This document shows positions 18,901 through 32,603 of a stretch of 64,000 bases of DNA, piece by piece. Under the pieces are notes generated by a model that worked only from the letters and a program-made list of their open reading frames with translations, made no database searches and was not told the DNA's origin. The stretch comes from Escherichia coli (GTDB lineage Bacteria > Pseudomonadota > Gammaproteobacteria > Enterobacterales > Enterobacteriaceae). Location: NCBI RefSeq assembly GCF_009931435.1, contig NZ_CP043414.1. One strand, 5' to 3'. The translations under genes and the position numbers were made by a program. The stretch's first letter is position 1. The number at the start of each line of letters is the position of its first letter.

Positions 18901-19764
18901 ATGAAACAACACCAATCGGCGGATAATTCTCAGGGCCAGCTTTACATTGTACCGACGCCAATCGGCAATCTGGCAGATATCACCCAGCGTGCGTTGGAGG
19001 TTTTACAGGCCGTTGATCTGATTGCCGCCGAGGATACGCGTCATACCGGTTTACTGCTGCAACATTTTGGAATTAACGCCAGGTTGTTCGCCTTGCACGA
19101 CCATAACGAACAACAGAAAGCCGAAACGTTACTGGCGAAGCTGCAGGAAGGGCAAAACATTGCGCTGGTGTCCGATGCCGGAACGCCACTAATTAACGAT
19201 CCCGGCTATCATCTGGTGCGTACCTGCCGAGAAGCGGGGATTCGCGTGGTGCCACTACCGGGGCCGTGTGCTGCTATCACTGCATTAAGTGCTGCGGGTT
19301 TACCATCCGATCGTTTTTGTTATGAAGGCTTTTTACCTGCCAAATCAAAAGGCCGCCGTGATGCGCTAAAAGCCATTGAAGCGGAGCCGCGCACGCTGAT
19401 TTTTTATGAATCGACCCACCGTCTGTTAGATAGCCTGGAAGATATCGTTGCGGTATTAGGCGAATCCCGCTACGTCGTTCTGGCGCGTGAGCTGACCAAA
19501 ACCTGGGAAACCATTCACGGCGCGCCCGTTGGCGAGCTGCTGGCGTGGGTCAAAGAAGATGAAAACCGTCGCAAAGGTGAAATGGTGCTGATTGTTGAAG
19601 GCCATAAAGCACAGGAAGAAGACTTACCTGCCGATGCCCTGCGCACGCTGGCGTTGTTACAGGCTGAGCTTCCGCTGAAGAAAGCGGCGGCGCTGGCGGC
19701 AGAGATTCACGGCGTGAAAAAAAACGCGCTGTATAAGTATGCGCTGGAACAGCAGGGGGAGTGA
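18901..19764 (+). CDS. rsmI: 16S rRNA (cytidine1402-2'-O)-methyltransferase RsmI
   Basis: 287 aa; tetrapyrrole-methylase-like fold; divergent from lpoA. Confidence 0.9.
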
Positions 19765-19768
19765 TTAC

Positions 19769-19803
19769 AGGCGTCGCAGCAAGAATAGAGCTGCAACGCC
19801 TAC
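19769..19803. terminator. hairpin shared by convergent rsmI and agaI (likely bidirectional terminator)
   Basis: aggcgtcgcag...ctgcaacgcct inverted repeat in the ~50-bp gap. Confidence 0.5.
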
Positions 19804-19813
19804 ACCGGGCGAT

Positions 19814-20581
19814 TTAACGACGACACATCTCATCAATCATGCATGTGAAATAGTTATGCAGCCATAAAAACGAAGCCGGGATAGCGGTAGAGACTTTAGC
19901 CGTGAGAAAACGTTCTGTCGCATCCTGCTTTCCTTCGCCAGTCACCAGTAGCAAAACTTCGCGGGTATTGAGAATATCCTTCAGGCCTAAGGTGATCCCA
20001 CGAGTCACGGGGCGACCCGCGGTTTTTAACATCTCATGTTGCTGTGTTCTGGCATCAAGTTGACTGATATGGCAGGCCGGTTGCAGGCTTTCTCCCGGTT
20101 CGTTCAGCCCAAGATGACCGTTTTTCCCCAATCCGAGAACGCATAAATCCAGACCGCCTTTGCGCGCAATCAGGTTCGTTACCCGTTCGCACTCTGTCTC
20201 ATTTATCTCTTCGGAGCGAAAGCTGATGAGCTGGTCTTCACGTAGCCCCAGCGGCTGCACGATATGCTGTTGAAGGAAAGTTTCGCAGGTGCCAGGCATC
20301 GTTAATGGCAGATCCACCCATTCGTCGAGCTTCACGAAGGTGAGCTGGCTGACATCAACCTGCTGCTGGTGGATTTTTTCTACCAGATAATGATACGTCA
20401 GTAATGGCGTGGCTCCGGTCGCCAGGCAAATCACGGCATCCGGTTTGCTACGGATCACGGCCAATAAATATTCGCTGGCACGTTCACTTAACGCCGTATA
20501 GTTTTCAACTTGTTGAAGGGTTTGCACAGGATGAAATTCCTTTAGTAAAGAGGCACCACCAGACGCAGTGCCTCGTTCCAT
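19814..20581 (-). CDS. agaI: galactosamine-6-phosphate deaminase/isomerase (NagB family)
   Basis: 255-aa ORF, last gene of agaS-kbaY-agaBCDI; NagB-like; true start may be a few codons downstream. Confidence 0.85.
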   Translation of the reverse strand: MERGTASGGASLLKEFHPVQTLQQVENYTALSERASEYLLAVIRSKPDAVICLATGATPLLTYHYLVEKIHQQQVDVSQLTFVKLDEWVDLPLTMPGTCETFLQQHIVQPLGLREDQLISFRSEEINETECERVTNLIARKGGLDLCVLGLGKNGHLGLNEPGESLQPACHISQLDARTQQHEMLKTAGRPVTRGITLGLKDILNTREVLLLVTGEGKQDATERFLTAKVSTAIPASFLWLHNYFTCMIDEMCRR

Positions 20582-21373
20582 TTACAAAATGCCGAATGCG
20601 GAACAAACAATAGAGAGCACAAAAGTCACGCCGATTAACAGCACCGGATGCGCTTTTTTCACCCGCAGGAAGTAATACATCAGCAGGGTATAGGCCATCG
20701 GTAAAATGTTCGGGAAGACTTTATCGAAGAAATCCTGCTGCAGGGCGACGCTGTGGGTACTGTCGATCGCAAACGATGTCACCACGTTAATATGCACATA
20801 CGAAGCGATCAGCCCGCCGATTACCGTGATCCCGAGGATGGTTGCCGAACGAGCAATCATCTGCGAGTTCTCTCGCACTTTATCGATCGCCTTCACGCCG
20901 ACTGAATAACCGACGTGGGTCCAGCCGACGCGCAGGAAGAAGATAAGCAGGTAAACGGCGAAAAATAGAATCGGCCCCAGCAAGTTTCCCTGGCTGGCAA
21001 ATGATGAGCAAATTCCCGCCATAATCGGCAATAAGGTAAACCAGAAAATCGCATCGCCAATCCCGGCGATTGGGCCAAACAGTGCCACTTTGAGGCCTTT
21101 AATGGTGTCGCGGTTTTCTCCTTTTTCTTCCATCGAAATTAATAACCCCATCAGGAATCCGACCAGATTCGGGTGGGTATTAATAAATTCGAGGTTATCT
21201 TTCATCGCCGCGCTTAGGCCCGGTTTGTCGTCCTTATAAATCTTTTTCAGGATCGGCAACATCGCCCAGGTAAAACCGCCCGCCTGCATCCTTTCGTAGT
21301 TAAAGCTTGCTTGTAGCAGTGACGAACGAAAGCCCAGACGGGTGATATCTTTTTTACTGATTTCAGATCCCAT
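20582..21373 (-). CDS. agaD: PTS mannose-family EIID component (galactosamine-specific), 263 aa
   Basis: ORF 20582..21520; start set at MGSEISKKDITRLGFRS, giving 11-nt overlap with agaC. Confidence 0.88.
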   Translation of the reverse strand: MGSEISKKDITRLGFRSSLLQASFNYERMQAGGFTWAMLPILKKIYKDDKPGLSAAMKDNLEFINTHPNLVGFLMGLLISMEEKGENRDTIKGLKVALFGPIAGIGDAIFWFTLLPIMAGICSSFASQGNLLGPILFFAVYLLIFFLRVGWTHVGYSVGVKAIDKVRENSQMIARSATILGITVIGGLIASYVHINVVTSFAIDSTHSVALQQDFFDKVFPNILPMAYTLLMYYFLRVKKAHPVLLIGVTFVLSIVCSAFGIL

Positions 21374-22166
21374 TGCTGTAGTCCTCTTCTTCATTTTTAC
21401 TGGCAACGGGCTGCGGTTGCGCTTGCTGCCGGGATTTCGCATTGAAAAACTCATACACCGCAAAGCCTGCGCCCAGTACGGCAACCGGCAACAGGTTGCT
21501 GACCTGGATGTAGCAAACAAACAGGAAACCGGCGATCAGGTAAGGGATATATTGCGCTTTGAACATTACGCGCAGCAGCAAGCCAAAACCAACGGCAGGC
21601 AGAATACCGCCAGCCACTTCAAAGCCGTGGGTCAGCCAGGCGGGCATCGCTTTCACCAGCGCCTGCATCGCCCCTTGCGCCAGGTAAGTACAGAGGAAAG
21701 CAATCACCGCATACGCTGAAGCGACGATGAGCATCGTTGTCCAGTTAAGTCGGGAAAACGCTGCTGTATCCGCCTCTTTCGCACAATTATCAGCTTTGGT
21801 CATGAATAATGAGAAAGCGGAATAGAAGAACAGAATGACGTACTGCATTAACAAACTAAACGGCAGACCAAGACCAATTGCCGTTTTGGCATCGACGCCC
21901 GTAGACCATGCAATGACGGTGGTCATCAGACCCGCCATAATTGGGTTGGGCGGCTGAACACCACCTGCGGGGGTTAATCCGGCGAAAGCCAGTTCTGTCA
22001 GGCCACCGGTAATTAAGCCAATCTGAATATCACCGAGAATAGCACCTGTAAGGGTACAAACGATTATCGGGCGGAATAAAAATAAGGCTTCCAGCCAAAA
22101 ATCAATCCCCAGAACGAAAACTAACGCCGCCAGGGATAATCCCTGAATTAGGGTTATTTCATGCAT
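21363..22166 (-). CDS. agaC: PTS mannose-family EIIC component (galactosamine-specific)
   Basis: 267-aa membrane ORF MHEITLIQGLSLAALVF... Confidence 0.88.
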   Translation of the reverse strand: MHEITLIQGLSLAALVFVLGIDFWLEALFLFRPIIVCTLTGAILGDIQIGLITGGLTELAFAGLTPAGGVQPPNPIMAGLMTTVIAWSTGVDAKTAIGLGLPFSLLMQYVILFFYSAFSLFMTKADNCAKEADTAAFSRLNWTTMLIVASAYAVIAFLCTYLAQGAMQALVKAMPAWLTHGFEVAGGILPAVGFGLLLRVMFKAQYIPYLIAGFLFVCYIQVSNLLPVAVLGAGFAVYEFFNAKSRQQAQPQPVASKNEEEDYSNGI

Positions 22167-22204
22167 TTTTATTACCTCAAACCAGTATTAAGGCGATTTT
22201 AAAT

Positions 22205-22681
22205 TTAGTCAGGGATTTGTTCTTTTTGATCGCCGGGGACGTCCTGAATAAAAATATTCACACCGCGTTGTTTAATAAAGCGTAAGTCCGCGAGATCTTG
22301 ATCGTCGATATAAACTTTACTGCTGATTTGCTTTTTACCTTCCGAGAAATGCATATTGCCGACGTTGACATCTTTCAGGTCAATGCCACCTTCTATCAAT
22401 TTACGTACCGTTTGCGGCGTACGGCAAATCAAGAAGATTTTCTGATGCGGTGCAGCTTTGCCGATGACGTTAATGGTTTTTTCGATAGTAAAGAAACGAA
22501 TGCCAAAGCCGTAGGTTTCCGCGGTAATACCCATTAATTTTTGTTGAATATCATCGTTAGCGACAACATCATCCACGACTACCAGCAGATTTGCACCGAT
22601 GGTAGATGTCCAGGTCACACCAACCTGACCGTGAACCAGACGGTTATCAATACGGGTTAAGAGAATATTTGGACTGCTCAT
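22205..22681 (-). CDS. agaB: PTS mannose-family EIIB component (galactosamine-specific)
   Basis: 158 aa; RIDNRLVHGQV phospho-His region. Confidence 0.88.
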   Translation of the reverse strand: MSSPNILLTRIDNRLVHGQVGVTWTSTIGANLLVVVDDVVANDDIQQKLMGITAETYGFGIRFFTIEKTINVIGKAAPHQKIFLICRTPQTVRKLIEGGIDLKDVNVGNMHFSEGKKQISSKVYIDDQDLADLRFIKQRGVNIFIQDVPGDQKEQIPD

Positions 22682-22847
22682 TGTGTAATCCTCACCATAA
22701 AGTTGAATAATATAATTTTTTTAAATATATTATTGTTGCGATATTTTACTGATGTATTTATTAAGGTTTAGTTATCTCCTTTACCATTAAGGCACTCCCC
22801 GATATTAATCGGGAAGTACATTGGGATAAATCATAAAAAACTAATGA

Positions 22848-23720
<873 letters not shown>

Positions 23721-24875
23721 TTATGCCTGCCACGGATGAATGATTACGCCTTGCACCACGCGGTTAACGGTGCCGCTGGCTGATGGGGTATCCGGCGTAT
23801 TGCCCATATGCAGCGACTGCATCAGTGCAAACGTCTGGGCGTACATCAGGAAGCAAAATGCCTGCTCAACGTCGATAAAGTGACGTGACGGCGGCAGGAT
23901 GATATGTGGACCGGCGGTAATAACGTCGTTGCCTTCCGCGGCGATGGCGATTACGCGCATTGCCTGGTTGTCACGGCGGAGTTCTGCCAGCAGATCAAGA
24001 TCATACTGACGCGTATAGGGGTGGCTGGAGACAAACACCACCACCAGCGTTTCGTTATCGACCAGCGATTTCGGGCCATGACGGAATCCGGTCGGGGAAT
24101 CATAAAAGGCCGCCAGTTTACCCGCCGTCAGTTCCAGTACTTTCAGCGCCGACTCGCGTGCTGCGCCCTGTAAGCCACCGCTGCCGAGATAAACGATCCG
24201 TTTCCACGGTGCGTAACCAAACACACCTTCGCTGAAATCGCCCAGTGAGGTCAGGATCGCCTGGCAACGATCCGCTACGTCGCGGAAGGTCTGGCTATTG
24301 ATTGTCTCAGGTGCGAAAACCGCGAGGCAGCTGGCCATCATAGTGGTAATGCTGCTTGTCATTGCAAAGCCGCGATCGTGCGTTTCTGCGGGCATCAGCA
24401 GGGCAAACGCGTTGTCGCTGTTGATCGCGTTTTGGTAAAGAGCGCCCGCTTCGTTGCAGGTGATCGGCAGGTGATAGCATTCCGGTACAAACTGATTCGC
24501 CAGTTCCACGGCGGCGACGCTTTCCGGGCTGTTGCCAGATCGACCGAAGGAGATCAACAGCAGTGGATGAGCTGGATTCAGGTAGTCCATCGGATTAGTG
24601 ACCAGATCGGTGGTCGGTACGGCGCTGAAGTTTTTACCGGTATGGCTGGCGAGCCACGGCGCGATGATATCACCGATAAATGCCGAGGTTCCGGCTCCGG
24701 TCAGGATGATCCGCAGATTCTCTTTGCGCAGTAACGGTTCAAGGAAGTTATTGAGCGCGGAACGTAGCGCGTCGATGTTGGTGAGTGAACGGATCCATGC
24801 GCGAGGCTGATGGCGGATCTCTTCTTCAGTCCATGTGCCGGTGGTGGCGGCCGCTGGGGTGTAATTTTCTGGCAT
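23721..24875 (-). CDS. agaS: SIS-domain sugar-phosphate isomerase/deaminase AgaS
   Basis: 384 aa, two SIS domains; first gene of the agaS operon. Confidence 0.88.
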   Translation of the reverse strand: MPENYTPAAATTGTWTEEEIRHQPRAWIRSLTNIDALRSALNNFLEPLLRKENLRIILTGAGTSAFIGDIIAPWLASHTGKNFSAVPTTDLVTNPMDYLNPAHPLLLISFGRSGNSPESVAAVELANQFVPECYHLPITCNEAGALYQNAINSDNAFALLMPAETHDRGFAMTSSITTMMASCLAVFAPETINSQTFRDVADRCQAILTSLGDFSEGVFGYAPWKRIVYLGSGGLQGAARESALKVLELTAGKLAAFYDSPTGFRHGPKSLVDNETLVVVFVSSHPYTRQYDLDLLAELRRDNQAMRVIAIAAEGNDVITAGPHIILPPSRHFIDVEQAFCFLMYAQTFALMQSLHMGNTPDTPSASGTVNRVVQGVIIHPWQA

Positions 24876-24924
24876 AACTCAATCCTTAGTCTGATGAACT
24901 TGACTTCCGGCATTGCAGGCTTCG

Positions 24925-25050
24925 CTTGCCTTTCGTTTCATTTCACTTGGTGATTCGTTTCGTTGATTAAAATCTATAGAAAAGAAATCGAAAGTTCAAT
25001 GGAGAAAAAAGAAATAAAACGAAATTTGTGATCGTTGAAAGAAAAGACAA
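24925..25050. promoter_or_regulatory. agaS promoter region with clustered AgaR-operator-like TTTC/GAAA-rich motifs
   Basis: ctttcgtttcatttc, attcgtttcgttg, gaaatcgaaag, gaaataaaacgaaat seen upstream of agaS. Confidence 0.55.
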
Positions 25051-25084
25051 GGGAAGATTAAAGGATTGCGTGATAACGTCGCTA

Positions 25085-25150
25085 TGTGTACCGATTGCTG
25101 GAAGCGGCGTACCGTAGAGCGGATAAGACGCGCCAGCGTCGCATTCGACA
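25085..25150. repeat. REP-like palindromic element
   Basis: gcggataagacgcgccagcgtcgcat unit between agaS promoter and agaA 3' end. Confidence 0.5.
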
Positions 25151-25225
25151 CCACTGCACAGATTAAAACGAAAGAAAAAGAAAGGCCTTACGGGGGAAGT
25201 GAAGGCCCAATAAAGGAGCAAACCA

Positions 25226-26359
25226 TCAAAACGAAGCTAATTGACCCTGAATCCAGATTTGTTGCACATGCAGTCCGCTATTCAGCGCAACGACGCTGGC
25301 GCGTTTGCCCGGTTTAAGTGATCCCAGAACACCATCAACACCCAGCATACGCGCCGGATGCAGCGATGCCATATGGATGGCTTCCGCAGGCGTTACGCCC
25401 GTCAACTCGACCATGTTGCGCACTGCCGCATCGACAGACAGCGTACTGCCCGCCAGCCCACCGGACGCGGTACGGACAACGCCACCGTGCATCTGCACTT
25501 CTTCACCACATAACGTATAGCGACCATCCGGCATCCCGGCTGCCTGCATCGCGTCGGTGATGAGCACGATTCTCTCTTTCGCACAGCAACAACACAGCGA
25601 CATCGCCGCCGGATGAACATGATGCCCATCGGCTATCAGTTCCAGCCAGGCGCGCTTGTCCGTTAAACCCGCGCCAACCATTCCCGGTTCGCGGTGATGT
25701 AATCCTGTCATCCCGTTATAGCAATGCACCAGGCCGTCTGCGCCAGCATCAAATGCGGCGCGGGTTTGTTGCCAGGTTGCTGCGCTATGTCCCAGCATTA
25801 CCCGCACGTTCTGCTGTTTAAGATGACGAATGGCTTGTAACGCGCCCGTTTTTTCCGGTGCCAGCGCCACCACGCGCAAGGTATGCCGTGAAACAGCAAT
25901 CAATTGATCCAGCTCGGCAATTTCCAGCTCGCGAAACAGCTCCGGCGGATGTGCGCCTTTATTCTGCGGCGTGAAGTACGGCCCTTCGAGATAACTCCCC
26001 AGCACTTGCGCACCAGGTCCACCGCGCTGGCAGCGTAGCGCAATACGTTCCAGCGCCGCATGAATGGTATTAAGCGGCGCGGTTACGGTAGTCGGCAACC
26101 AACTGCCGACACCTTCCCGTGCCTTGTGCATTGCCAGCTTGTCGAGCGCATCCGGCGCGTCATCCATAACATCAACGCCCGCACCACCGTGTACATGGGT
26201 ATCGATATAAGCGGGGCAGAGCAGTTCCGCATCGCGTTCAGTCACGCCCACTGGAATCGGTTCGATTGCTGCGATTACACCGTCAGCAATACACAACTGA
26301 TGGTCATCGAGCCATCCCTCTTCAGTCAGCAGCCTTCTGGCGCGCAGAACGTGTGTCAT
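25226..26359 (-). CDS. agaA: N-acetylgalactosamine-6-phosphate deacetylase (NagA family), apparently full length
   Basis: ORF 25226..26380; start set at MTHVLRARRLL so that ATG overlaps agaF stop (ATGA); metal-binding H-x-H near N-terminus. Confidence 0.85.
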   Translation of the reverse strand: MTHVLRARRLLTEEGWLDDHQLCIADGVIAAIEPIPVGVTERDAELLCPAYIDTHVHGGAGVDVMDDAPDALDKLAMHKAREGVGSWLPTTVTAPLNTIHAALERIALRCQRGGPGAQVLGSYLEGPYFTPQNKGAHPPELFRELEIAELDQLIAVSRHTLRVVALAPEKTGALQAIRHLKQQNVRVMLGHSAATWQQTRAAFDAGADGLVHCYNGMTGLHHREPGMVGAGLTDKRAWLELIADGHHVHPAAMSLCCCCAKERIVLITDAMQAAGMPDGRYTLCGEEVQMHGGVVRTASGGLAGSTLSVDAAVRNMVELTGVTPAEAIHMASLHPARMLGVDGVLGSLKPGKRASVVALNSGLHVQQIWIQGQLASF

Positions 26360-26790
26360 ATTCCTTCCTCGACCGGACATTCTTCATGGCAGCGGCCTAA
26401 CTCGTCTACCAGACTGGTCAGCCCACGGTGTCCACACTCCAGCGCCTGCACACGGAATTCTTCACCGCTTAACCCTTCGCGCTCCAGCACCATTTCCAGT
26501 AACAGTTGCAAATTGGTGCCGGTGATCACTTCATAGCCCGGTTTTTGCATCGCCAGCGTTGAAGCCACGCGAAACGGTGTGCCGCCCAGCAAATCTGTCA
26601 GAAAAACAATGCCGTCTTCACAATCCAGTTTGGCAATGGCTTCTTCAAGCTGCGATGTAAGCAGCGCAGTGCTTGAGGTTTCCGGAAAATCAATGGCGAT
26701 AAACTGCGACTGCTCGCCGAGGATTTGCTTCATTGCTTTTTCCATGCCGCTGGCAAATCCGCCATGCCCTGTCAAAATAATACTTAACAT
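26356..26790 (-). CDS. agaF: PTS mannose-family EIIA component
   Basis: 144 aa; MLSIILTGHGGFASG... Confidence 0.85.
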   Translation of the reverse strand: MLSIILTGHGGFASGMEKAMKQILGEQSQFIAIDFPETSSTALLTSQLEEAIAKLDCEDGIVFLTDLLGGTPFRVASTLAMQKPGYEVITGTNLQLLLEMVLEREGLSGEEFRVQALECGHRGLTSLVDELGRCHEECPVEEGI

Positions 26791-26807
26791 CTAATACCTC
26801 ATTGTAT

Positions 26808-27692
26808 TTAAAGGAAATGACAGAATTTACCGACGATGCCAAGAACCACGGTAACCGCAATCAGGCGCAGCGGACTCCAGCCGCGGCGTACCAGCCAGAA
26901 CATGGTCAGGGTGTAGACCAGCGGTAAGAAGGCAGGCATCAGTTTGTCGATAACGTCAGCCTGCAGCTTAACCACTGCATCGCCCGCCGTGATTTCCAGC
27001 GTGGTGCTTAAACGAACATAGGTTGCCACCAGCGCGCCGATCACCGTCATCCCAACGATAGACGCTGCATGGCCGACTTTTTTGGTATTCGCTTTAATGA
27101 GTGGGATCGCCGCCACGCCCATGCGGTAAGCATAATGCGCCAGACCAAAACGCAGCCCCAGGTGTACCACGTTAAACAGCACAATAAACACGACTGCGCC
27201 AAGAATAGAGCCTTGCAATGCCAGACTGGCACCAATCCCGCCACAAATCGGCAGTAACGTTAGCCAGAACATGGCATCGCCAATCCCACCGAGCGGCGCA
27301 CCGACGGCAATTTTGGTGCTCTGAATACTGTTAACGTCCTGCTTAGAACGCTCCATCGCGAGGATAATGCCAATAACAAACGTCACCAGAAACGGATGGG
27401 TATTGAAGAAACCCATATGCCCCTTCATGGCGCGCGCCAGGTCGCGTTTATTAGTGTGGATCTTTTTCAGAGCAGGCAGCAGACCGTACAACCAGCCGGA
27501 AGCCTGCATACGTTCGTAGTTAAAAGACGCTTGTAACAGCATGGAACGCCAGGCGACGCGGTTGATATCTTTTTTTGTTAGCTCCGCGCCAATGCTCTGA
27601 TCTTCATACACGTTTTCATTGACGCCTGTCAGTAGTGTTTCTTCGTTTTCACTGACGTTCGGCAGGGTAGTTTGATTAGATGCCATCTTCAA
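26808..27692 (-). CDS. agaE: PTS mannose-family EIID component (N-acetylgalactosamine-specific)
   Basis: 294-aa membrane ORF, paralogous to agaD. Confidence 0.85.
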   Translation of the reverse strand: MKMASNQTTLPNVSENEETLLTGVNENVYEDQSIGAELTKKDINRVAWRSMLLQASFNYERMQASGWLYGLLPALKKIHTNKRDLARAMKGHMGFFNTHPFLVTFVIGIILAMERSKQDVNSIQSTKIAVGAPLGGIGDAMFWLTLLPICGGIGASLALQGSILGAVVFIVLFNVVHLGLRFGLAHYAYRMGVAAIPLIKANTKKVGHAASIVGMTVIGALVATYVRLSTTLEITAGDAVVKLQADVIDKLMPAFLPLVYTLTMFWLVRRGWSPLRLIAVTVVLGIVGKFCHFL

Positions 27693-28455
27693 ATTCCTCT
27701 TTCTGTGCCGCAGGTTGAGTCGGTTCAGGAGATTTACGCAGCAGGTCGATCAGCGCCATCGCCAGCGCGGCGGCAGCAATAGCCAGCACCGGTAACTTGA
27801 GCCAGGCGGCGGCAACGAAGCCCAGGATGAAGTAGGGGATATAGACGTTTTTCATCATGATTTTCAGCAGCACGGCAAAACCGATTGCTGGCATGATGCC
27901 GCCCGCGACGCCAAGGCCGTCGATTAACCGTTGCGGCAGGACATCAATGATGGTTTTTGCATGCTCCGCGCCGAAGTAGATAGGCAGGAAAGCGCAGAGA
28001 AAATAGAACGTGCCGAGTGCCAGCAATGCCAGATAGTTCACGCGTTCAATGCCGCGAGTATCGGCGTTCTCCGCCATCCGGTCGCAGCGGGACATCACGC
28101 CAGACATCACCGAGAACAGGAAGGTAATCCCCATCTGTACTGCGACAGCGAAAGGTACGGCGACACCGACCGCGACATCCGGTTTCACGCCAGTAGTAAT
28201 GGCAAACGCCGTGCCGACGATAGTTCCGATAATCACGTTAGGCGGCTGTGCGCCCGCCAGCGGTGCCAGCCCCATCCACACCAGTTCCAGCGTACCGCCG
28301 GTTAAAATACCGGTATGCAGATCGCCAAGCACCAACCCAACTAACGGGCCGAGGACCACCGGGCGGTGCATATGGGTTAGGCCGTTAAACATATCCAGGC
28401 CAGCGATAAAGGCGATAATGCCCAACGCAAATGCCTGCAACAGACTGATTTCCAT
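27676..28455 (-). CDS. agaW: PTS mannose-family EIIC component (N-acetylgalactosamine-specific), full length
   Basis: 259-aa membrane ORF, paralogous to agaC. Confidence 0.85.
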   Translation of the reverse strand: MEISLLQAFALGIIAFIAGLDMFNGLTHMHRPVVLGPLVGLVLGDLHTGILTGGTLELVWMGLAPLAGAQPPNVIIGTIVGTAFAITTGVKPDVAVGVAVPFAVAVQMGITFLFSVMSGVMSRCDRMAENADTRGIERVNYLALLALGTFYFLCAFLPIYFGAEHAKTIIDVLPQRLIDGLGVAGGIMPAIGFAVLLKIMMKNVYIPYFILGFVAAAWLKLPVLAIAAAALAMALIDLLRKSPEPTQPAAQKEEFEDGI

Positions 28456-28465
28456 GATGAATCCC

Positions 28466-28939
28466 TCAAAGTAATTTAAAGAGGTCCACAGCAGGCTCTG
28501 TCGGGACGCCCTGAACGAAGCATTCCACCCCAGCGGCTTTCAGGTCGTTAAATGCTGCGATATCGCCCGCATCCACAGAAACCGTTTTGGCGATTTGTTG
28601 CTTGCCATTGGCGTAGTGCATATTGCCAACGTTAATGCGATTCACCGGAACGCCACCTTTCACCAGCGTCAGGAAATCGGCAGGTGTTTTACAAACCAGC
28701 AGGATTTTCTGTCGATCGGCGGCGCGATGAATGTTGTCGATCACTTTTTGCAGCGTCCAGAAACGTACGGCGATCCCTTCTGCCAGCACCATTTCCATCA
28801 GGTTTTGTTGTACCGGATCTTCGGCAACCTCATCATTGGCTACCAGCACCAGATTTGCCCCCGCAAATCCGACCCACTGAACGCCGACCTGACCGTGAAT
28901 CAAGCGTTCATCAATCCGGCTTAAAACAATATTTGGCAT
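28466..28939 (-). CDS. agaV: PTS mannose-family EIIB component (N-acetylgalactosamine-specific), 157 aa
   Basis: ORF 28466..28975; start set at MPNIVLSRIDERLIHGQ. Confidence 0.85.
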   Translation of the reverse strand: MPNIVLSRIDERLIHGQVGVQWVGFAGANLVLVANDEVAEDPVQQNLMEMVLAEGIAVRFWTLQKVIDNIHRAADRQKILLVCKTPADFLTLVKGGVPVNRINVGNMHYANGKQQIAKTVSVDAGDIAAFNDLKAAGVECFVQGVPTEPAVDLFKLL

Positions 28940-28961
28940 AGCGTGTTCCTCTTTGTTTTGC

Positions 28962-30242
28962 TTATTGGCCTTCACAGGCTGTGTGGTACTGCGCCAGGAT
29001 GTCCTGAATATGGTTGATAATGAGTTCCCGTGGCGTTGGCTGCAGCTCGCCGGAGCGAACTTTCACGTATTGCAGCGGCAGGTACTGACTGATGAGCGGC
29101 AGCGGAATTGGCGCATCCGCCAGGTTACGAACCAGATGAGCGAAAGCGTCATCAATCTGGCTGTCCGGCCAGTAATAGCGCACGCGATCCGAGTAGCTAT
29201 AACCACGCGCCAGACGACGCGCGTTGCCGTCACCGTGGTAGTGGCTTTGCCAGTATTCCGGGCGGTCGAGCATCACGTTTTCCAGCACCTGACGCAGACC
29301 GGAACAGGCTTTTGCTGGCACCAGTTCTTCTTCAATCGCCGCCAGAGAGAACAGAGCTTCACGCAGGGCGAAGGTCAGCGCTGGGCCAACTTTCAGAATG
29401 GCAAAGTGGTCAATCACCAGCTGGCGCAGCGATTGCGGCGTTTGGTAATCGGTAGAGTGCGCTTCGAAAATCAGCGTTTCGTAGTTTTCGACCATCTGGC
29501 TTAAGGCGGTCGCTTTAGCTGGCTGATAATCAATAACGTTGGTGTGATCGAATTCGACGCCGGGTTGTACCACCAGAGCAATGATGCGTGGCCAGATGGC
29601 ATTCAGACCTTGCTTTTCAAAGGCGTGACGATGGGCTTCCAGCGTGGCGCGGGCGGCATCCGGCGTAGTGACCGCCAGCTCGCTTAAGGTTTCATGCGCG
29701 CCGCCAGGTACCGGCACTTCGGTACCAATGACATACACCAGATCGGCTTCGCCAAAGTGTTCACGGCAGGTTTCTTCCGCGACTTTAGCCAGTCGGGCGG
29801 CGCGTTCAGCCACGATGTCATCGGTTAAGGGAACCGGATCGTCCTGACAGGACATGCTGCAATCAAGGTGAATTTTTTTGAATCCTGCCGCCACGTAGCT
29901 TTTAATCAAATCATCGGCATTGGCCATCGCCTGAGCTGCAGGCAGGTTTTGCCAGCGGTTTGGCCCCAGATGATCGCCACCCAGAATCAACGCGTCTTGT
30001 GGGAAATTCAATGAGTCGGCGAGCTGACAAACAAAGCCGCGAAAATCGGCGGGTGTCATTCCGGTATAACCACCGAACTGGTCCACCTGATTGGATGTCG
30101 CTTCAATCAGTAACGGTGTTTGGTTTACACTGGCGTAGCGGATTGCAGCTTCCAGCACCAGCGGGTGTGCGGAACAAACGGCATAAATCCCATTTGTTTT
30201 GCCCTCTTTGTGCTGCCTCACCATTTCTGTCAGATGTTTCAC
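28962..30242 (-). CDS. kbaZ: tagatose-bisphosphate aldolase non-catalytic subunit KbaZ (426 aa, GTG start)
   Basis: ORF 28962..30308; start set at in-frame GTG ([10 protein letters not shown]...); the longer ATG-initiated form would run into the operator region. Confidence 0.8.
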
Positions 30243-30314
30243 TTTCCTCTCCAGTTCAGATTGCTGCGATATTAATCTTTCGTTTTGTTTCAGTTGATAC
30301 TGCGTCATGGTGAG

Positions 30315-30478
30315 ATAAAAATAAAACGAAAGATAATAGTTTTCTGATCTGATTCACAAAAGAAACATAATGAAAGTCACTGAAACGAGAGTAGCTTGCG
30401 TCAATGGGCAAGGTGGGCTTGCATTTGCTCAATAGAAAGGCGTAAATAGGCAAAACGAAATGAAACGAAAGTTTTACG
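30315..30478. promoter_or_regulatory. divergent kbaZ / agaR promoter region with AgaR operator-like motifs
   Basis: aaataaaacgaaag and aacgaaatgaaacgaaag motifs in the intergenic gap. Confidence 0.6.
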
Positions 30479-30490
30479 AAAGGACTTACT

Positions 30491-31300
30491 ATGAGTAATA
30501 CCGACGCTTCAGGCGAGAAGCGAGTGACAGGCACCAGCGAGCGACGAGAACAAATCATTCAGCGCCTGCGACAGCAAGGGAGTGTGCAGGTTAACGATCT
30601 GTCGGCATTGTATGGCGTATCTACTGTGACGATCCGCAACGATCTGGCTTTTCTGGAAAAGCAGGGGATCGCTGTGCGGGCCTATGGCGGCGCGTTGATC
30701 TGCGATAGCACGACGCCGTCAGTCGAGCCATCAGTGGAAGATAAAAGCGCGCTGAACACTGCGATGAAACGCAGCGTTGCGAAAGCTGCCGTTGAGTTGA
30801 TTCAGCCAGGTCATCGGGTGATCCTCGATTCCGGGACCACCACGTTTGAGATTGCTCGTCTGATGCGCAAGCACACCGACGTAATTGCGATGACCAATGG
30901 TATGAACGTAGCCAATGCACTGCTGGAAGCAGAAGGCGTTGAACTTCTTATGACCGGCGGGCATCTGCGGCGTCAGTCGCAATCTTTTTACGGCGATCAG
31001 GCTGAACAATCGCTACAAAATTACCACTTTGATATGCTTTTTCTCGGCGTAGATGCGATCGATCTGGAGCGCGGCGTCAGCACGCATAATGAAGATGAAG
31101 CCCGTTTAAACCGTCGGATGTGCGAAGTTGCGGAACGGATCATTGTGGTCACCGATTCCAGTAAGTTCAACCGTTCCAGTTTACATAAGATCATTGATAC
31201 TCAACGTATCGACATGATCATTGTTGATGAAGGCATTCCTGCGGATAGTCTGGAAGGCCTGCGAAAGGCTGGGGTTGAAGTGATTCTGGTCGGGGAGTGA
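30491..31300 (+). CDS. agaR: DeoR-family transcriptional repressor of the aga operons
   Basis: 269 aa; N-terminal HTH (…[17 protein letters not shown]…) and DeoR sugar-phosphate-binding C-domain. Confidence 0.9.
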
Positions 31301-31589
31301 GAAATGGCGCCCGTAGCTCAACACGGATGTGTTCGGCGGGCATTGTTCACTGACCTTTTACAGCCTGTTTTCTGCTCAAATTAGAAACTTCAGCAAAGGT
31401 AATGCAAATGCATTATTAACAGCAGAAAGCGCCAGAACCAACGAAAAAAGAGAGCATGTTTCCCATTTTGCGAGGCGCTTTCCAAATCACCCGCTCAGTC
31501 CCCTCGCGTTGCAGTGCTAAAAGCACTATTTTGCAAATTTGTGACCTTCTTCACTCTCCCAAAAGGCGGTGATCTCACGGTGGGGATCC

Positions 31590-31815
31590 ACTTTCTGCTT
31601 TCGCTTTTCTGCCGTTAGCACTCGCTATTTCGGCATCTCTTCTTTTCACTTTTTCAGTTTGTCATTTTCATTTGCGGTCAACCGAAAGTTCTGGAGTCGA
31701 TTTTTCCAGGTTTCAACGCCGTTGTCGCGTTCACAAATTCACTTCTTTTCTTCTGATGTAATGCATTCAAAAGAAAATGAAAGCTGCAAAATGCAAGAAT
31801 GCAACGAAATACTTT
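31590..31815. promoter_or_regulatory. long leader of the second DeoR gene, rich in TTTC/GAAA repeats (candidate operator array)
   Basis: ctttctgctttcgcttttctgcc, tcttttcactttttcagtttgtcattttcatttgcgg, gaaaatgaaagctg; motif class resembles the aga operators. Confidence 0.4.
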
Positions 31816-31832
31816 TTCAGGGAGCGATAAAC

Positions 31833-32603
31833 ATGCTAGATAGCCTAAGACGCCGCGAACAAATCATTGATTTGTTATGTGCCCAGGGAAGCGTACGCGT
31901 TGAGCCGCTCAGCATCCATTTTGGTGTCTCATCGGTCACGATCCGCAATGACTTACGGTATCTGGAGCAAAAAGGTTGCGTCATGCGTTCCTATGGCGGT
32001 GCCGTGTTGAATCAACACTTTGCGCTCGACAGACCCTTGCAGGATAAAGATCGCCTTAATCGTGATGTTAAAGTGCGAATTGCCGAAAAAGCGGCCAGTT
32101 TTGTCAAAGATGGCGATACATTAATTATCGATTCTGGTTCAACGACCACGCTAATTCCCGCTTCGCTCAAAGGGCGTCGGGATTTAGTCGTCATGACGAA
32201 TGCCTTGAATATCGCCTGGGAAATGGCCAGTTTTGAACGGGTGGATGTTATGATCCTTGGTGGAAATGTTCGCCAGAGCGTCTACTCCCTGTATGGGCCT
32301 TCGGCAGAACAACAACTCCGGCAGTATCGCTTTGATAAGCTGTTTTTGGGCGTGGACGGCTTTTGCCTTGAAGCAGGGATTACCACACCACATCCGGGTG
32401 AGGCACATCTGAACCAGGTGATGTGCCAGGTTGCGCAGGAAATTACTGTTGTCGCGGACTCCAGTAAATTTGGCCGCAAAAGCTTCTGTATGATCGGTGA
32501 AGTGAGCGAGATAGATCGACTGATTACCGATAGCGGTATTCCGGAGAATTACAAAGCAGCATTAACGCAAATGGGTGTGGAAGTTGTGATTGCTGATGAG
32601 TGA
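31833..32603 (+). CDS. DeoR-family transcriptional regulator, AgaR paralogue (256 aa)
   Basis: ORF 31569..32603; start set at MLDSLRRREQIIDLL preceded by GGAG; alignable by eye with AgaR along its length (…VTIRNDL..LE.KG…YGGA…DSG.TT…FLGVD…). Confidence 0.8.
   Translation: MLDSLRRREQIIDLLCAQGSVRVEPLSIHFGVSSVTIRNDLRYLEQKGCVMRSYGGAVLNQHFALDRPLQDKDRLNRDVKVRIAEKAASFVKDGDTLIIDSGSTTTLIPASLKGRRDLVVMTNALNIAWEMASFERVDVMILGGNVRQSVYSLYGPSAEQQLRQYRFDKLFLGVDGFCLEAGITTPHPGEAHLNQVMCQVAQEITVVADSSKFGRKSFCMIGEVSEIDRLITDSGIPENYKAALTQMGVEVVIADE

Follow-up and report, generated by a model that had tools for sequence, protein, structure and literature searches.

The window analysed here, a 64,000-nucleotide stretch of Escherichia coli DNA, carries a complete aga cluster on its minus strand, arranged as agaR, kbaZ-agaV-W-E-F-A and agaS-kbaY-agaB-C-D-I. 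Genes were named from the list of open reading frames and from the RefSeq annotation of strain 2013C-4282, which is 100% identical to a 331-nt query covering the kbaY-agaB junction. At this junction, the two cistrons are separated by 166 nt of AT-rich DNA with a GC content of 0.271, compared with 0.52 in kbaY and 0.43 in agaB. The sequence-only reading had singled out this gap as long and AT-rich, unlike the tight junctions elsewhere in the aga operons, and we confirm this: the remaining junctions within both operons range from -11 to +38 nt, and the sole other long gap, the 350 nt between agaA and agaS, is the site of promoter Ps. The features of the junction are the following:

22848..23708, minus strand: kbaY, tagatose-bisphosphate aldolase subunit, the upstream cistron, with its stop codon TAA at 22848-22850 (open reading frame list and RefSeq annotation)
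22682..22847, minus strand: the kbaY-agaB intercistronic spacer (sequence)
22826..22840, minus strand: U-rich tract UUUUUUAUGAUUUAU, 5' of the hairpin, its U-richness retained in Citrobacter (sequence and alignment)
22792..22819, minus strand: RNA hairpin of the sense strand, with 5' arm 22808-22819, loop 22804-22807 and 3' arm 22792-22803 (folding and covariation)
22776..22781, minus strand: Shine-Dalgarno-like AAGGAG, without a conserved start codon or open reading frame behind it (alignment columns about 90-95)
22749..22765, minus strand: conserved block CTTAATAAATACATCAG (CTTAATAAAT...), in Citrobacter CTGAATAAATTCATG..., 56-72% identical between the genera
22703..22731, plus strand: sigma-70-like promoter sequence, antisense to the aga operon, with -35 TTGAAT at 22703-22708, a 17-bp spacer and -10 TATATT at 22726-22731
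22671..22696, minus strand: agaB translation initiation region, with the Shine-Dalgarno sequence (SD) GGUGAGGA at 22689-22696 and AUG at 22679-22681
22205..22681, minus strand: agaB, galactosamine PTS IIB, the downstream cistron, followed by agaC, agaD and agaI (open reading frame list and RefSeq annotation)

Of 5426 complete E. coli genomes, 5311 contain the 331-nt junction query, as a single copy, and 5246 contain the spacer, in each case at 90-100% identity (megablast). The spacer of K-12 MG1655 (3,284,004-3,284,169) differs from that of the window at three positions. The aga/gam cluster serves the growth of both commensal and pathogenic E. coli on mucin-derived amino sugars, and agaB has been linked to the colonisation of calves by EHEC, according to work cited in PMC6199705.

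Operators of AgaR, a DeoR-type regulator, were searched for as WRMMTTTCRTTTYRTTTYNYTTKK, reportedly the consensus of Ray & Larson 2004. The spacer contains no match, and the five matches present in the window, against 0.27 expected by chance, all lie in the Ps and PR/PZ regions:

24927-24950, plus strand, and 25005-25028, minus strand: AgaR consensus matches in the agaA-agaS (Ps) intergenic region
30274-30297, plus strand, 30356-30379, minus strand, and 30451-30474, minus strand: AgaR consensus matches in the agaR-kbaZ (PR/PZ) intergenic region

A CRP site in the spacer was also considered and rejected, the only candidate being a match with three mismatches over the agaB SD, at chance level (196 found versus 221 expected). 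In the SlyA paper, the operon is listed as 2.5-fold SlyA-induced and does not bear the G/K/O marks of the table, which we take to denote H-NS ChIP studies. At the agaB end of the spacer, RNAalifold predicts a 5-bp pairing GGAUU/AGUCC on the minus strand, between 22687-22691, the 3' part of the SD, and 22671-22675, codons 3-4. Such a pairing would partly occlude the agaB SD and could dampen translation initiation; because its pairs are invariant, covariation lends it no support.

A selected RNA hairpin downstream of kbaY

A hairpin had been noticed in the spacer by the sequence-only reading, which gave it on the plus strand. It is indeed present there (22795-22816) and extends to 12 bp at 22792-22819, but the operon and the structure under selection are those of the minus strand. 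Read along the mRNA from 22819 down to 22792, its sequence is GUACUUCCCGAU-UAAU-AUCGGGGAGUGC, a 12-bp stem closed by a 4-nt loop; its counterpart in K-12 MG1655 occupies 3,284,032-3,284,059 of the plus strand. It begins 29 nt past the kbaY stop codon, beyond the footprint of a terminating ribosome, and is thus able to fold. The 28-nt segment around the 9-bp core of the stem folds with -13.2 kcal/mol (z = -4.6, equalled by 0 of 200 shuffles), the complete 12-bp hairpin with -18.4 kcal/mol, and the fold of the entire spacer has a z-score of -4.0. When the spacer of an ortholog with an identical hairpin was shuffled, the best hairpin reached -6.8 +/- 2.3 kcal/mol, versus the -18.4 kcal/mol observed. 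These comparisons with shuffled sequences place the hairpin well beyond chance.

Orthologous kbaY-agaB junctions were collected from one genome per species, and their spacers were extracted and placed in 11-sequence alignments of Escherichia and Citrobacter. A hairpin of differing sequence stands at an equal distance from the stop codon in E. coli E69, Escherichia sp. E1V33, E. whittamii, E. albertii and six Citrobacter genomes; that of C. amalonaticus reads AGCGCUAUCUGAU-GAAU-AUCAGGUAGCGCU. Across the 11 sequences, standard pairs fill 92-93% of the cells of the helix, 6-7 of the 12 pairs show compensatory changes on both sides, and sliding the 3' partner by 1-3 columns leaves pairing in only 27-49%. 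Run unguided, RNAalifold returned this same helix as the sole conserved structure of the spacer, and it found neither a larger conserved fold nor an alternative antiterminator pairing; C. amalonaticus shows an alternative pairing that the other orthologs do not share. Within E. coli itself, a divergent allele (the 90-95% identity band, 593 genomes) retains the stem through a flip of U.G to G.U.

The two strands differ markedly in how well the helix is kept. Pairing amounts to 93.2% on the sense strand and to 79.5% in the reverse-complement alignment, and G.U pairs occupy 22 cells in the sense orientation versus 4 in the antisense one, each sense G.U becoming a C.A mismatch on the opposite strand. 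At the site, a covariance model scores 43.6 bits in the sense and 14.3 bits in the antisense orientation, and the sense strand is favoured by 13-29 bits, a bias that holds in every ortholog. The difference in pairing between the strands indicates that an RNA structure is under selection in the aga transcript. The hairpin is therefore a selected, locus-specific RNA structure of the sense strand. The strand asymmetry of the G.U pairs rules out a DNA palindrome or protein operator, and the sense-strand bias rules out a constraint acting on an antisense RNA.

A REP/BIME or other dispersed repeat was likewise rejected, the element being single-copy (megablast; a median of one place per genome). In the 64-kb window, the covariance model has no match besides the hairpin itself, and an Rfam search over 19000-32000 (E <= 10) gave no match in the spacer, 22682-22847. 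The agaA-agaS spacer, for its part, holds a weak naRNA4/REP-like Rfam match at 25122-25187 on the minus strand (20.8 bits, for a gathering score of 59.5).

Genera in which the spacer is long possess unrelated stable hairpins (-9 to -23 kcal/mol) located 2-50 nt past the kbaY stop. Their stabilities are, by genus:

Trabulsiella, hairpin after kbaY: -17 to -20 kcal/mol
Pluralibacter, hairpin after kbaY: -17.9 kcal/mol
Pseudocitrobacter, hairpin after kbaY: -21.3 kcal/mol
Phytobacter, hairpin after kbaY: about -9 kcal/mol

No hairpin follows kbaY where the spacer measures 38-49 nt, as in Lelliottia, Enterobacter sp. kpr-6 and a MAG. Since hairpins accompany long spacers and are missing from short ones, a stem-loop after kbaY is a recurrent, though not universal, trait of the junction. 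No description of a kbaY-agaB hairpin element was found in the literature searched: the element is of an ordinary kind, most likely an intercistronic protective stem-loop, at a locus where none had been described before.

Probable uncoupling of agaBCDI from the upstream genes

The sequence-only reading proposed that the spacer uncouples expression of the transporter from that of the upstream catabolic genes, by means of an internal attenuator or a secondary promoter. The selection of the hairpin on the sense strand and the recurrence of hairpins after kbaY support the idea of uncoupling, whereas neither of the two devices stood up to analysis. Uncoupling of agaBCDI from agaS and kbaY is likely, by some means other than a classical attenuator or a secondary sense promoter.

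A promoter located in the spacer would transcribe agaBCDI independently of Ps. The consensus promoter scan reported no sense-strand site in the spacer. In a scan with a position weight matrix (PWM), whose frequencies are approximate, the best sense-strand sites scored 3-8, lacked a -35 and varied in position between orthologs, so that no pair of hexamers spaced by 16-18 bp was conserved in place; the antisense site described below scored 9.3-9.4. Nor does the spacer hold an AgaR operator or CRP site. Genetic data point the same way. Deletion of agaS in E. coli C abolishes agaBCD function, and growth on GalN was regained only with a plasmid carrying agaSYBCD, with no sign of expression independent of the upstream promoter (PMC3668189). 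The deletion was polar on agaBCD and not on kbaY, which puzzled its authors (PMC3668189, Hu et al. 2013), and this polarity implies that expression of agaBCD relies on transcription started at Ps. In favour of a sense promoter, AT-rich DNA is replete with -10-like hexamers, and the core AATATATT conserved in the spacer is palindromic, so that the sense strand carries TATATT too. Inspection of the Pseudocitrobacter spacer shows an exact TATAAT in sense orientation some 35 nt upstream of agaB, and an induction smaller for agaB than for kbaY could mean a higher basal level. On balance, we consider a secondary agaB promoter very unlikely.

The induction data come from RNA-seq of strain EDL933 in bovine rectal content, with log2 fold changes of 4.57 for agaY, 3.01 for agaB and 2.11 for agaC (PMC6199705). 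This step-down among co-induced genes agrees with attenuated co-transcription, but as evidence it is weak, because these are fold changes and not levels, and because agaZVWEF, which has no such spacer, displays a similar gradient (PMC6199705). For the locus, the literature searched yielded no mapped 3' or 5' ends, RNase E sites or half-lives, and the operon is repressed under standard conditions; likewise, no transcript ends at the locus were found via Ettwiller 2016, EDL933 Cappable-seq, the Rend-seq annotation, SMRT-Cappable-seq, Adams 2021 and Conway 2014.

With intrinsic terminators and attenuators, the hairpin shares a stable GC-containing stem-loop placed right after a stop codon. The scan of the window for intrinsic terminators did not list it, no U-tract lies 3' of the stem in any Escherichia or Citrobacter ortholog (the tail in the window is CUUAAUGGUA), and no conserved antiterminator structure accompanies it. 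In a score of the d'Aubenton-Carafa type, the hairpin obtains a T-tail of 1.23 and a d-score of -31; its Escherichia and Citrobacter orthologs range from 0.4 to 1.4 and from -31 to -69, compared with +13 for a canonical terminator taken as control (locus L012, see below). Only the Pseudocitrobacter counterpart, with a U5 tail and an A-tract, resembles a true terminator. For Escherichia and Citrobacter, an internal attenuator that works by intrinsic termination can accordingly be dismissed. Control by antitermination of the RAT/BglG-SacY PRD type was also rejected: there is no canonical terminator, and none of the 13 annotated aga genes encodes a PRD antiterminator.

The hairpin could instead act as a leaky, non-canonical attenuator, at which termination would proceed without a U-tract or by means of Rho, so that control would be exerted on transcription and not on decay. 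Several observations would suit this possibility: a stable hairpin directly after the stop is followed by 110 nt of untranslated RNA, the Pseudocitrobacter counterpart looks like a genuine terminator, and the agaS deletion is polar on agaBCD and spares kbaY (PMC3668189). The uniformly negative d-scores argue against it, as does the composition of the spacer, which is AU-rich, whereas rut sites are C-rich and G-poor. We deem it rather unlikely.

Intercistronic stem-loops are known to stop PNPase and RNase II once an endonuclease has cut the message, and thereby to stabilise the upstream cistron, as between malE and malF. A conserved, stable structure of the mRNA strand, located just downstream of kbaY and inside the operon, is what such a role calls for, and the hairpin has these properties. 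Our preferred explanation, to which we assign about an even chance, is that the hairpin is a 3' protective stem-loop of the malE-malF type, which would keep the agaS-kbaY segment stable while the agaBCDI segment is lowered. According to this scheme, transcription of agaS-kbaY-agaBCDI driven by Ps would run through the spacer, and the hairpin would fold in the mRNA 29 nt past the kbaY stop. RNase E would then cut within the 110-nt AU-rich untranslated stretch downstream, or transcription would end there through inefficient or Rho-type termination, the 3' end being trimmed afterwards. Halted by the hairpin, 3'-to-5' exonucleases would leave a stable agaS-kbaY message, and the agaBCDI part would become scarcer. 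The expected outcome is a larger supply of the soluble enzymes used for both GalNAc and GalN and a smaller supply of the GalN-specific membrane transporter. Of this scheme, the cutting or termination of the transcript, the halting of exonucleases and the shift in stoichiometry are inferred.

About 12% of E. coli operons are reshaped by conserved 3' structures with a protective role (Dar & Sorek 2018, PMC5927463). As with those structures and the malE-malF REP stem-loops, the aga hairpin is a conserved stem-loop without a U-tract, standing within one transcription unit in the gap after cistrons expected to be more abundant. Unlike the malE-malF stem-loops, it is single-copy and locus-specific instead of belonging to the REP/BIME family, and its protective effect is a presumed one. 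Three points weigh against exonuclease protection of agaS-kbaY: Lelliottia and Enterobacter manage without any hairpin, the structure could just as well shield a processed agaBCDI mRNA at its 5' end, and neither the AT-rich half of the spacer, which is conserved, nor the AAGGAG motif is accounted for.

The second of these points corresponds to an arrangement of the papBA type, in which RNase E would cut in the U-rich tract and the hairpin, now a 5'-terminal stem-loop, would stabilise the processed agaBCDI mRNA. As in papBA, a U-rich single-stranded tract lies directly 5' of a stable hairpin ahead of the downstream cistron. The tract at 22826-22840 contains candidate RNase E sites of the RN↓WUU kind (GA↓UUU) 6-20 nt upstream of the hairpin, its U-richness is conserved, and Dar & Sorek describe the same arrangement for 7 of the 10 operons whose downstream gene is stabilised (PMC5927463). 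However, similar cleavage motifs are equally frequent downstream of the hairpin. Stabilisation of this kind predicts that agaBCDI be at least as abundant as kbaY, contrary to the fold-change trend and to the customary surplus of enzymes relative to membrane transporters. The effect on stoichiometry expected at aga runs opposite to that of papBA. Such a role of the hairpin strikes us as quite unlikely.

If protection of the agaS-kbaY message holds, a conserved partition point in the operon would explain how the enzymes shared by GalNAc and GalN catabolism are set at a level unlike that of the GalN-specific transporter. It may also explain why deletion of agaS was polar on agaBCD and not on kbaY (PMC3668189). 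Beyond this locus, the hairpin would add just one further case, well supported by covariation and strand asymmetry, of an intercistronic RNA structure shaping operon stoichiometry.

The agaB-proximal half of the spacer

The half of the spacer nearest to agaB is far better conserved than neutral sites. Identities between E. coli and Citrobacter are distributed as follows:

agaB 4-fold degenerate sites: 38-46%
Segment following the hairpin: 24-37%
AATAATATATTT block (the -10): 85-100%
Block from ATTCAA to the SD: 73-76%
17-bp stretch between the hexamers: 50-71%

This half contains TTGAAT-17-TATATT, the only promoter-like site reported by the consensus scan in the spacer on either strand, which faces away from agaB. 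It adjoins the agaB ribosome-binding site, and transcription from it would begin near 22738 (about 3,284,113 on the minus strand of K-12) and read via the hairpin region into the antisense strand of kbaY. Its hexamers are consensus-like, spaced by 17 bp and conserved across two genera. In 10 of 11 orthologs, the PWM ranks this site first and finds it in an unchanged place, and no more than 16 sites reach such a score in the 128 kb scanned. The spacing remains 17 bp, or 16 bp in E. albertii, despite indels immediately beside the element, which is limited to Escherichia and Citrobacter. In C. amalonaticus S646, about 150 bp bounded by imperfect inverted repeats have been inserted between the ATTCAA block and the agaB SD (L013, about 2838-2985); the antisense element is intact despite being separated from agaB by this insert. 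As the -10 core is palindromic, it could on sequence alone be read in the sense direction as well, but without a -35.

That this element is a functional antisense promoter is a tentative proposal, less likely than not and compatible with exonuclease protection by the hairpin. It might act through collision with, or blocking of, the polymerase transcribing the operon, or its transcript might direct cleavage of the polycistronic mRNA in the manner of GadY. The proposal draws on the contrast between hexamers that are conserved and an intervening stretch that varies, on the rank and constant position of the best sigma-70 match in the spacer, and on the survival of this match beside the S646 insertion. 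On the other side, AT-rich DNA abounds in promoter-like hexamers, the conservation could stem from needs of the agaB 5' UTR or from binding of a protein to the DNA, no plus-strand terminator stands nearby to delimit a small RNA, and the PWM was built from approximate frequencies. The literature searched provided no evidence of a transcription start site or antisense RNA, and nothing relevant on kbaY or agaB in connection with antisense transcription, small RNAs or Hfq.

GadY is reportedly a cis-antisense RNA encoded in the gadX-gadW intercistronic region (Opdyke et al. 2004, 2011). It directs cleavage of the gadX-gadW mRNA. The likeness with the aga spacer resides in an opposite-strand promoter inside an intercistronic spacer, giving a transcript complementary to the junction of a polycistronic message. 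The two differ in that the aga promoter is a predicted one and that no terminator defines a small RNA. Combining both strands, one may envision a two-part, strand-specific module in place since the common ancestor of Escherichia and Citrobacter, with a sense hairpin acting as a decay barrier and an antisense promoter setting the flow of the Ps message into agaBCDI. We regard this combination as improbable. Were it true, the GalN transporter would answer to a signal other than AgaR and be regulated apart from AgaS and KbaY, either through directed processing as with GadY or through transcriptional interference. The conserved, predicted antisense promoter is the one part of the junction that could lead to something new.

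The AAGGAG and CTTAATAAAT blocks are both conserved between Escherichia and Citrobacter. Two small open reading frames, MIYPNVLPD* (start at 22834) and MVKEITKP* (with its AUG before AAGGAG), were rejected, their start codons not being conserved in E. coli E69 or Citrobacter, and so was a 12-codon open reading frame on the plus strand (22752-22790), which is not conserved either.

Finally, the spacer may coincide with a boundary in the history of the operon. The GC content of agaB is 0.43, versus 0.52-0.57 in kbaY and agaS. Outside the Enterobacteriaceae, the nearest relatives of AgaB are found in Firmicutes, at 62-72% protein identity, within agaBCD-agaF clusters. These comparisons, which concern 22205-22681 and 21363-22166 of the window and loci L029-L081, suggest that the GalN transporter module may have been acquired horizontally and joined to agaS-kbaY at the spacer. 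In its extreme form, this history would reduce the spacer to a non-functional scar of the joining and the hairpin to a decaying ancestral terminator. Besides the drop in GC and the affinities of AgaB, such a view could invoke the agaBCD modules lying behind other genes and the length of the spacer, which varies from 38 to 335 nt among genera. However, no relic in decay would gather compensatory changes with a strand-specific G.U bias, or retain blocks 85-100% identical where 4-fold degenerate sites are at 38-46%. The covariation largely excludes a pure relic, and we consider the absence of any function in the spacer highly improbable.

The agaBCD modules located elsewhere occur in Escherichia sp. 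MOD1-EC7003 and Enterobacteriaceae bacterium 89 (L012 and L016), where agaB-agaC-agaD encode proteins 82-98% identical to those of the window behind different genes. Judged from sequence, the upstream genes at these two loci encode a 523-aa membrane protein (PTS EIIBC-like) and a 392-aa protein resembling MalY/PatB-type aminotransferases. At L012, the canonical terminator GGCAGATAATTAATTATCTGC, followed by T7, lies about 50 nt before agaB. In E. coli DXMF6-3R (L084), the upstream aga region is missing and IS1 sits directly upstream of agaB, leaving garP-IS1-agaB, and in Enterobacter sp. ENT03 (L026), only short remnants of kbaY survive between agaS and agaB.
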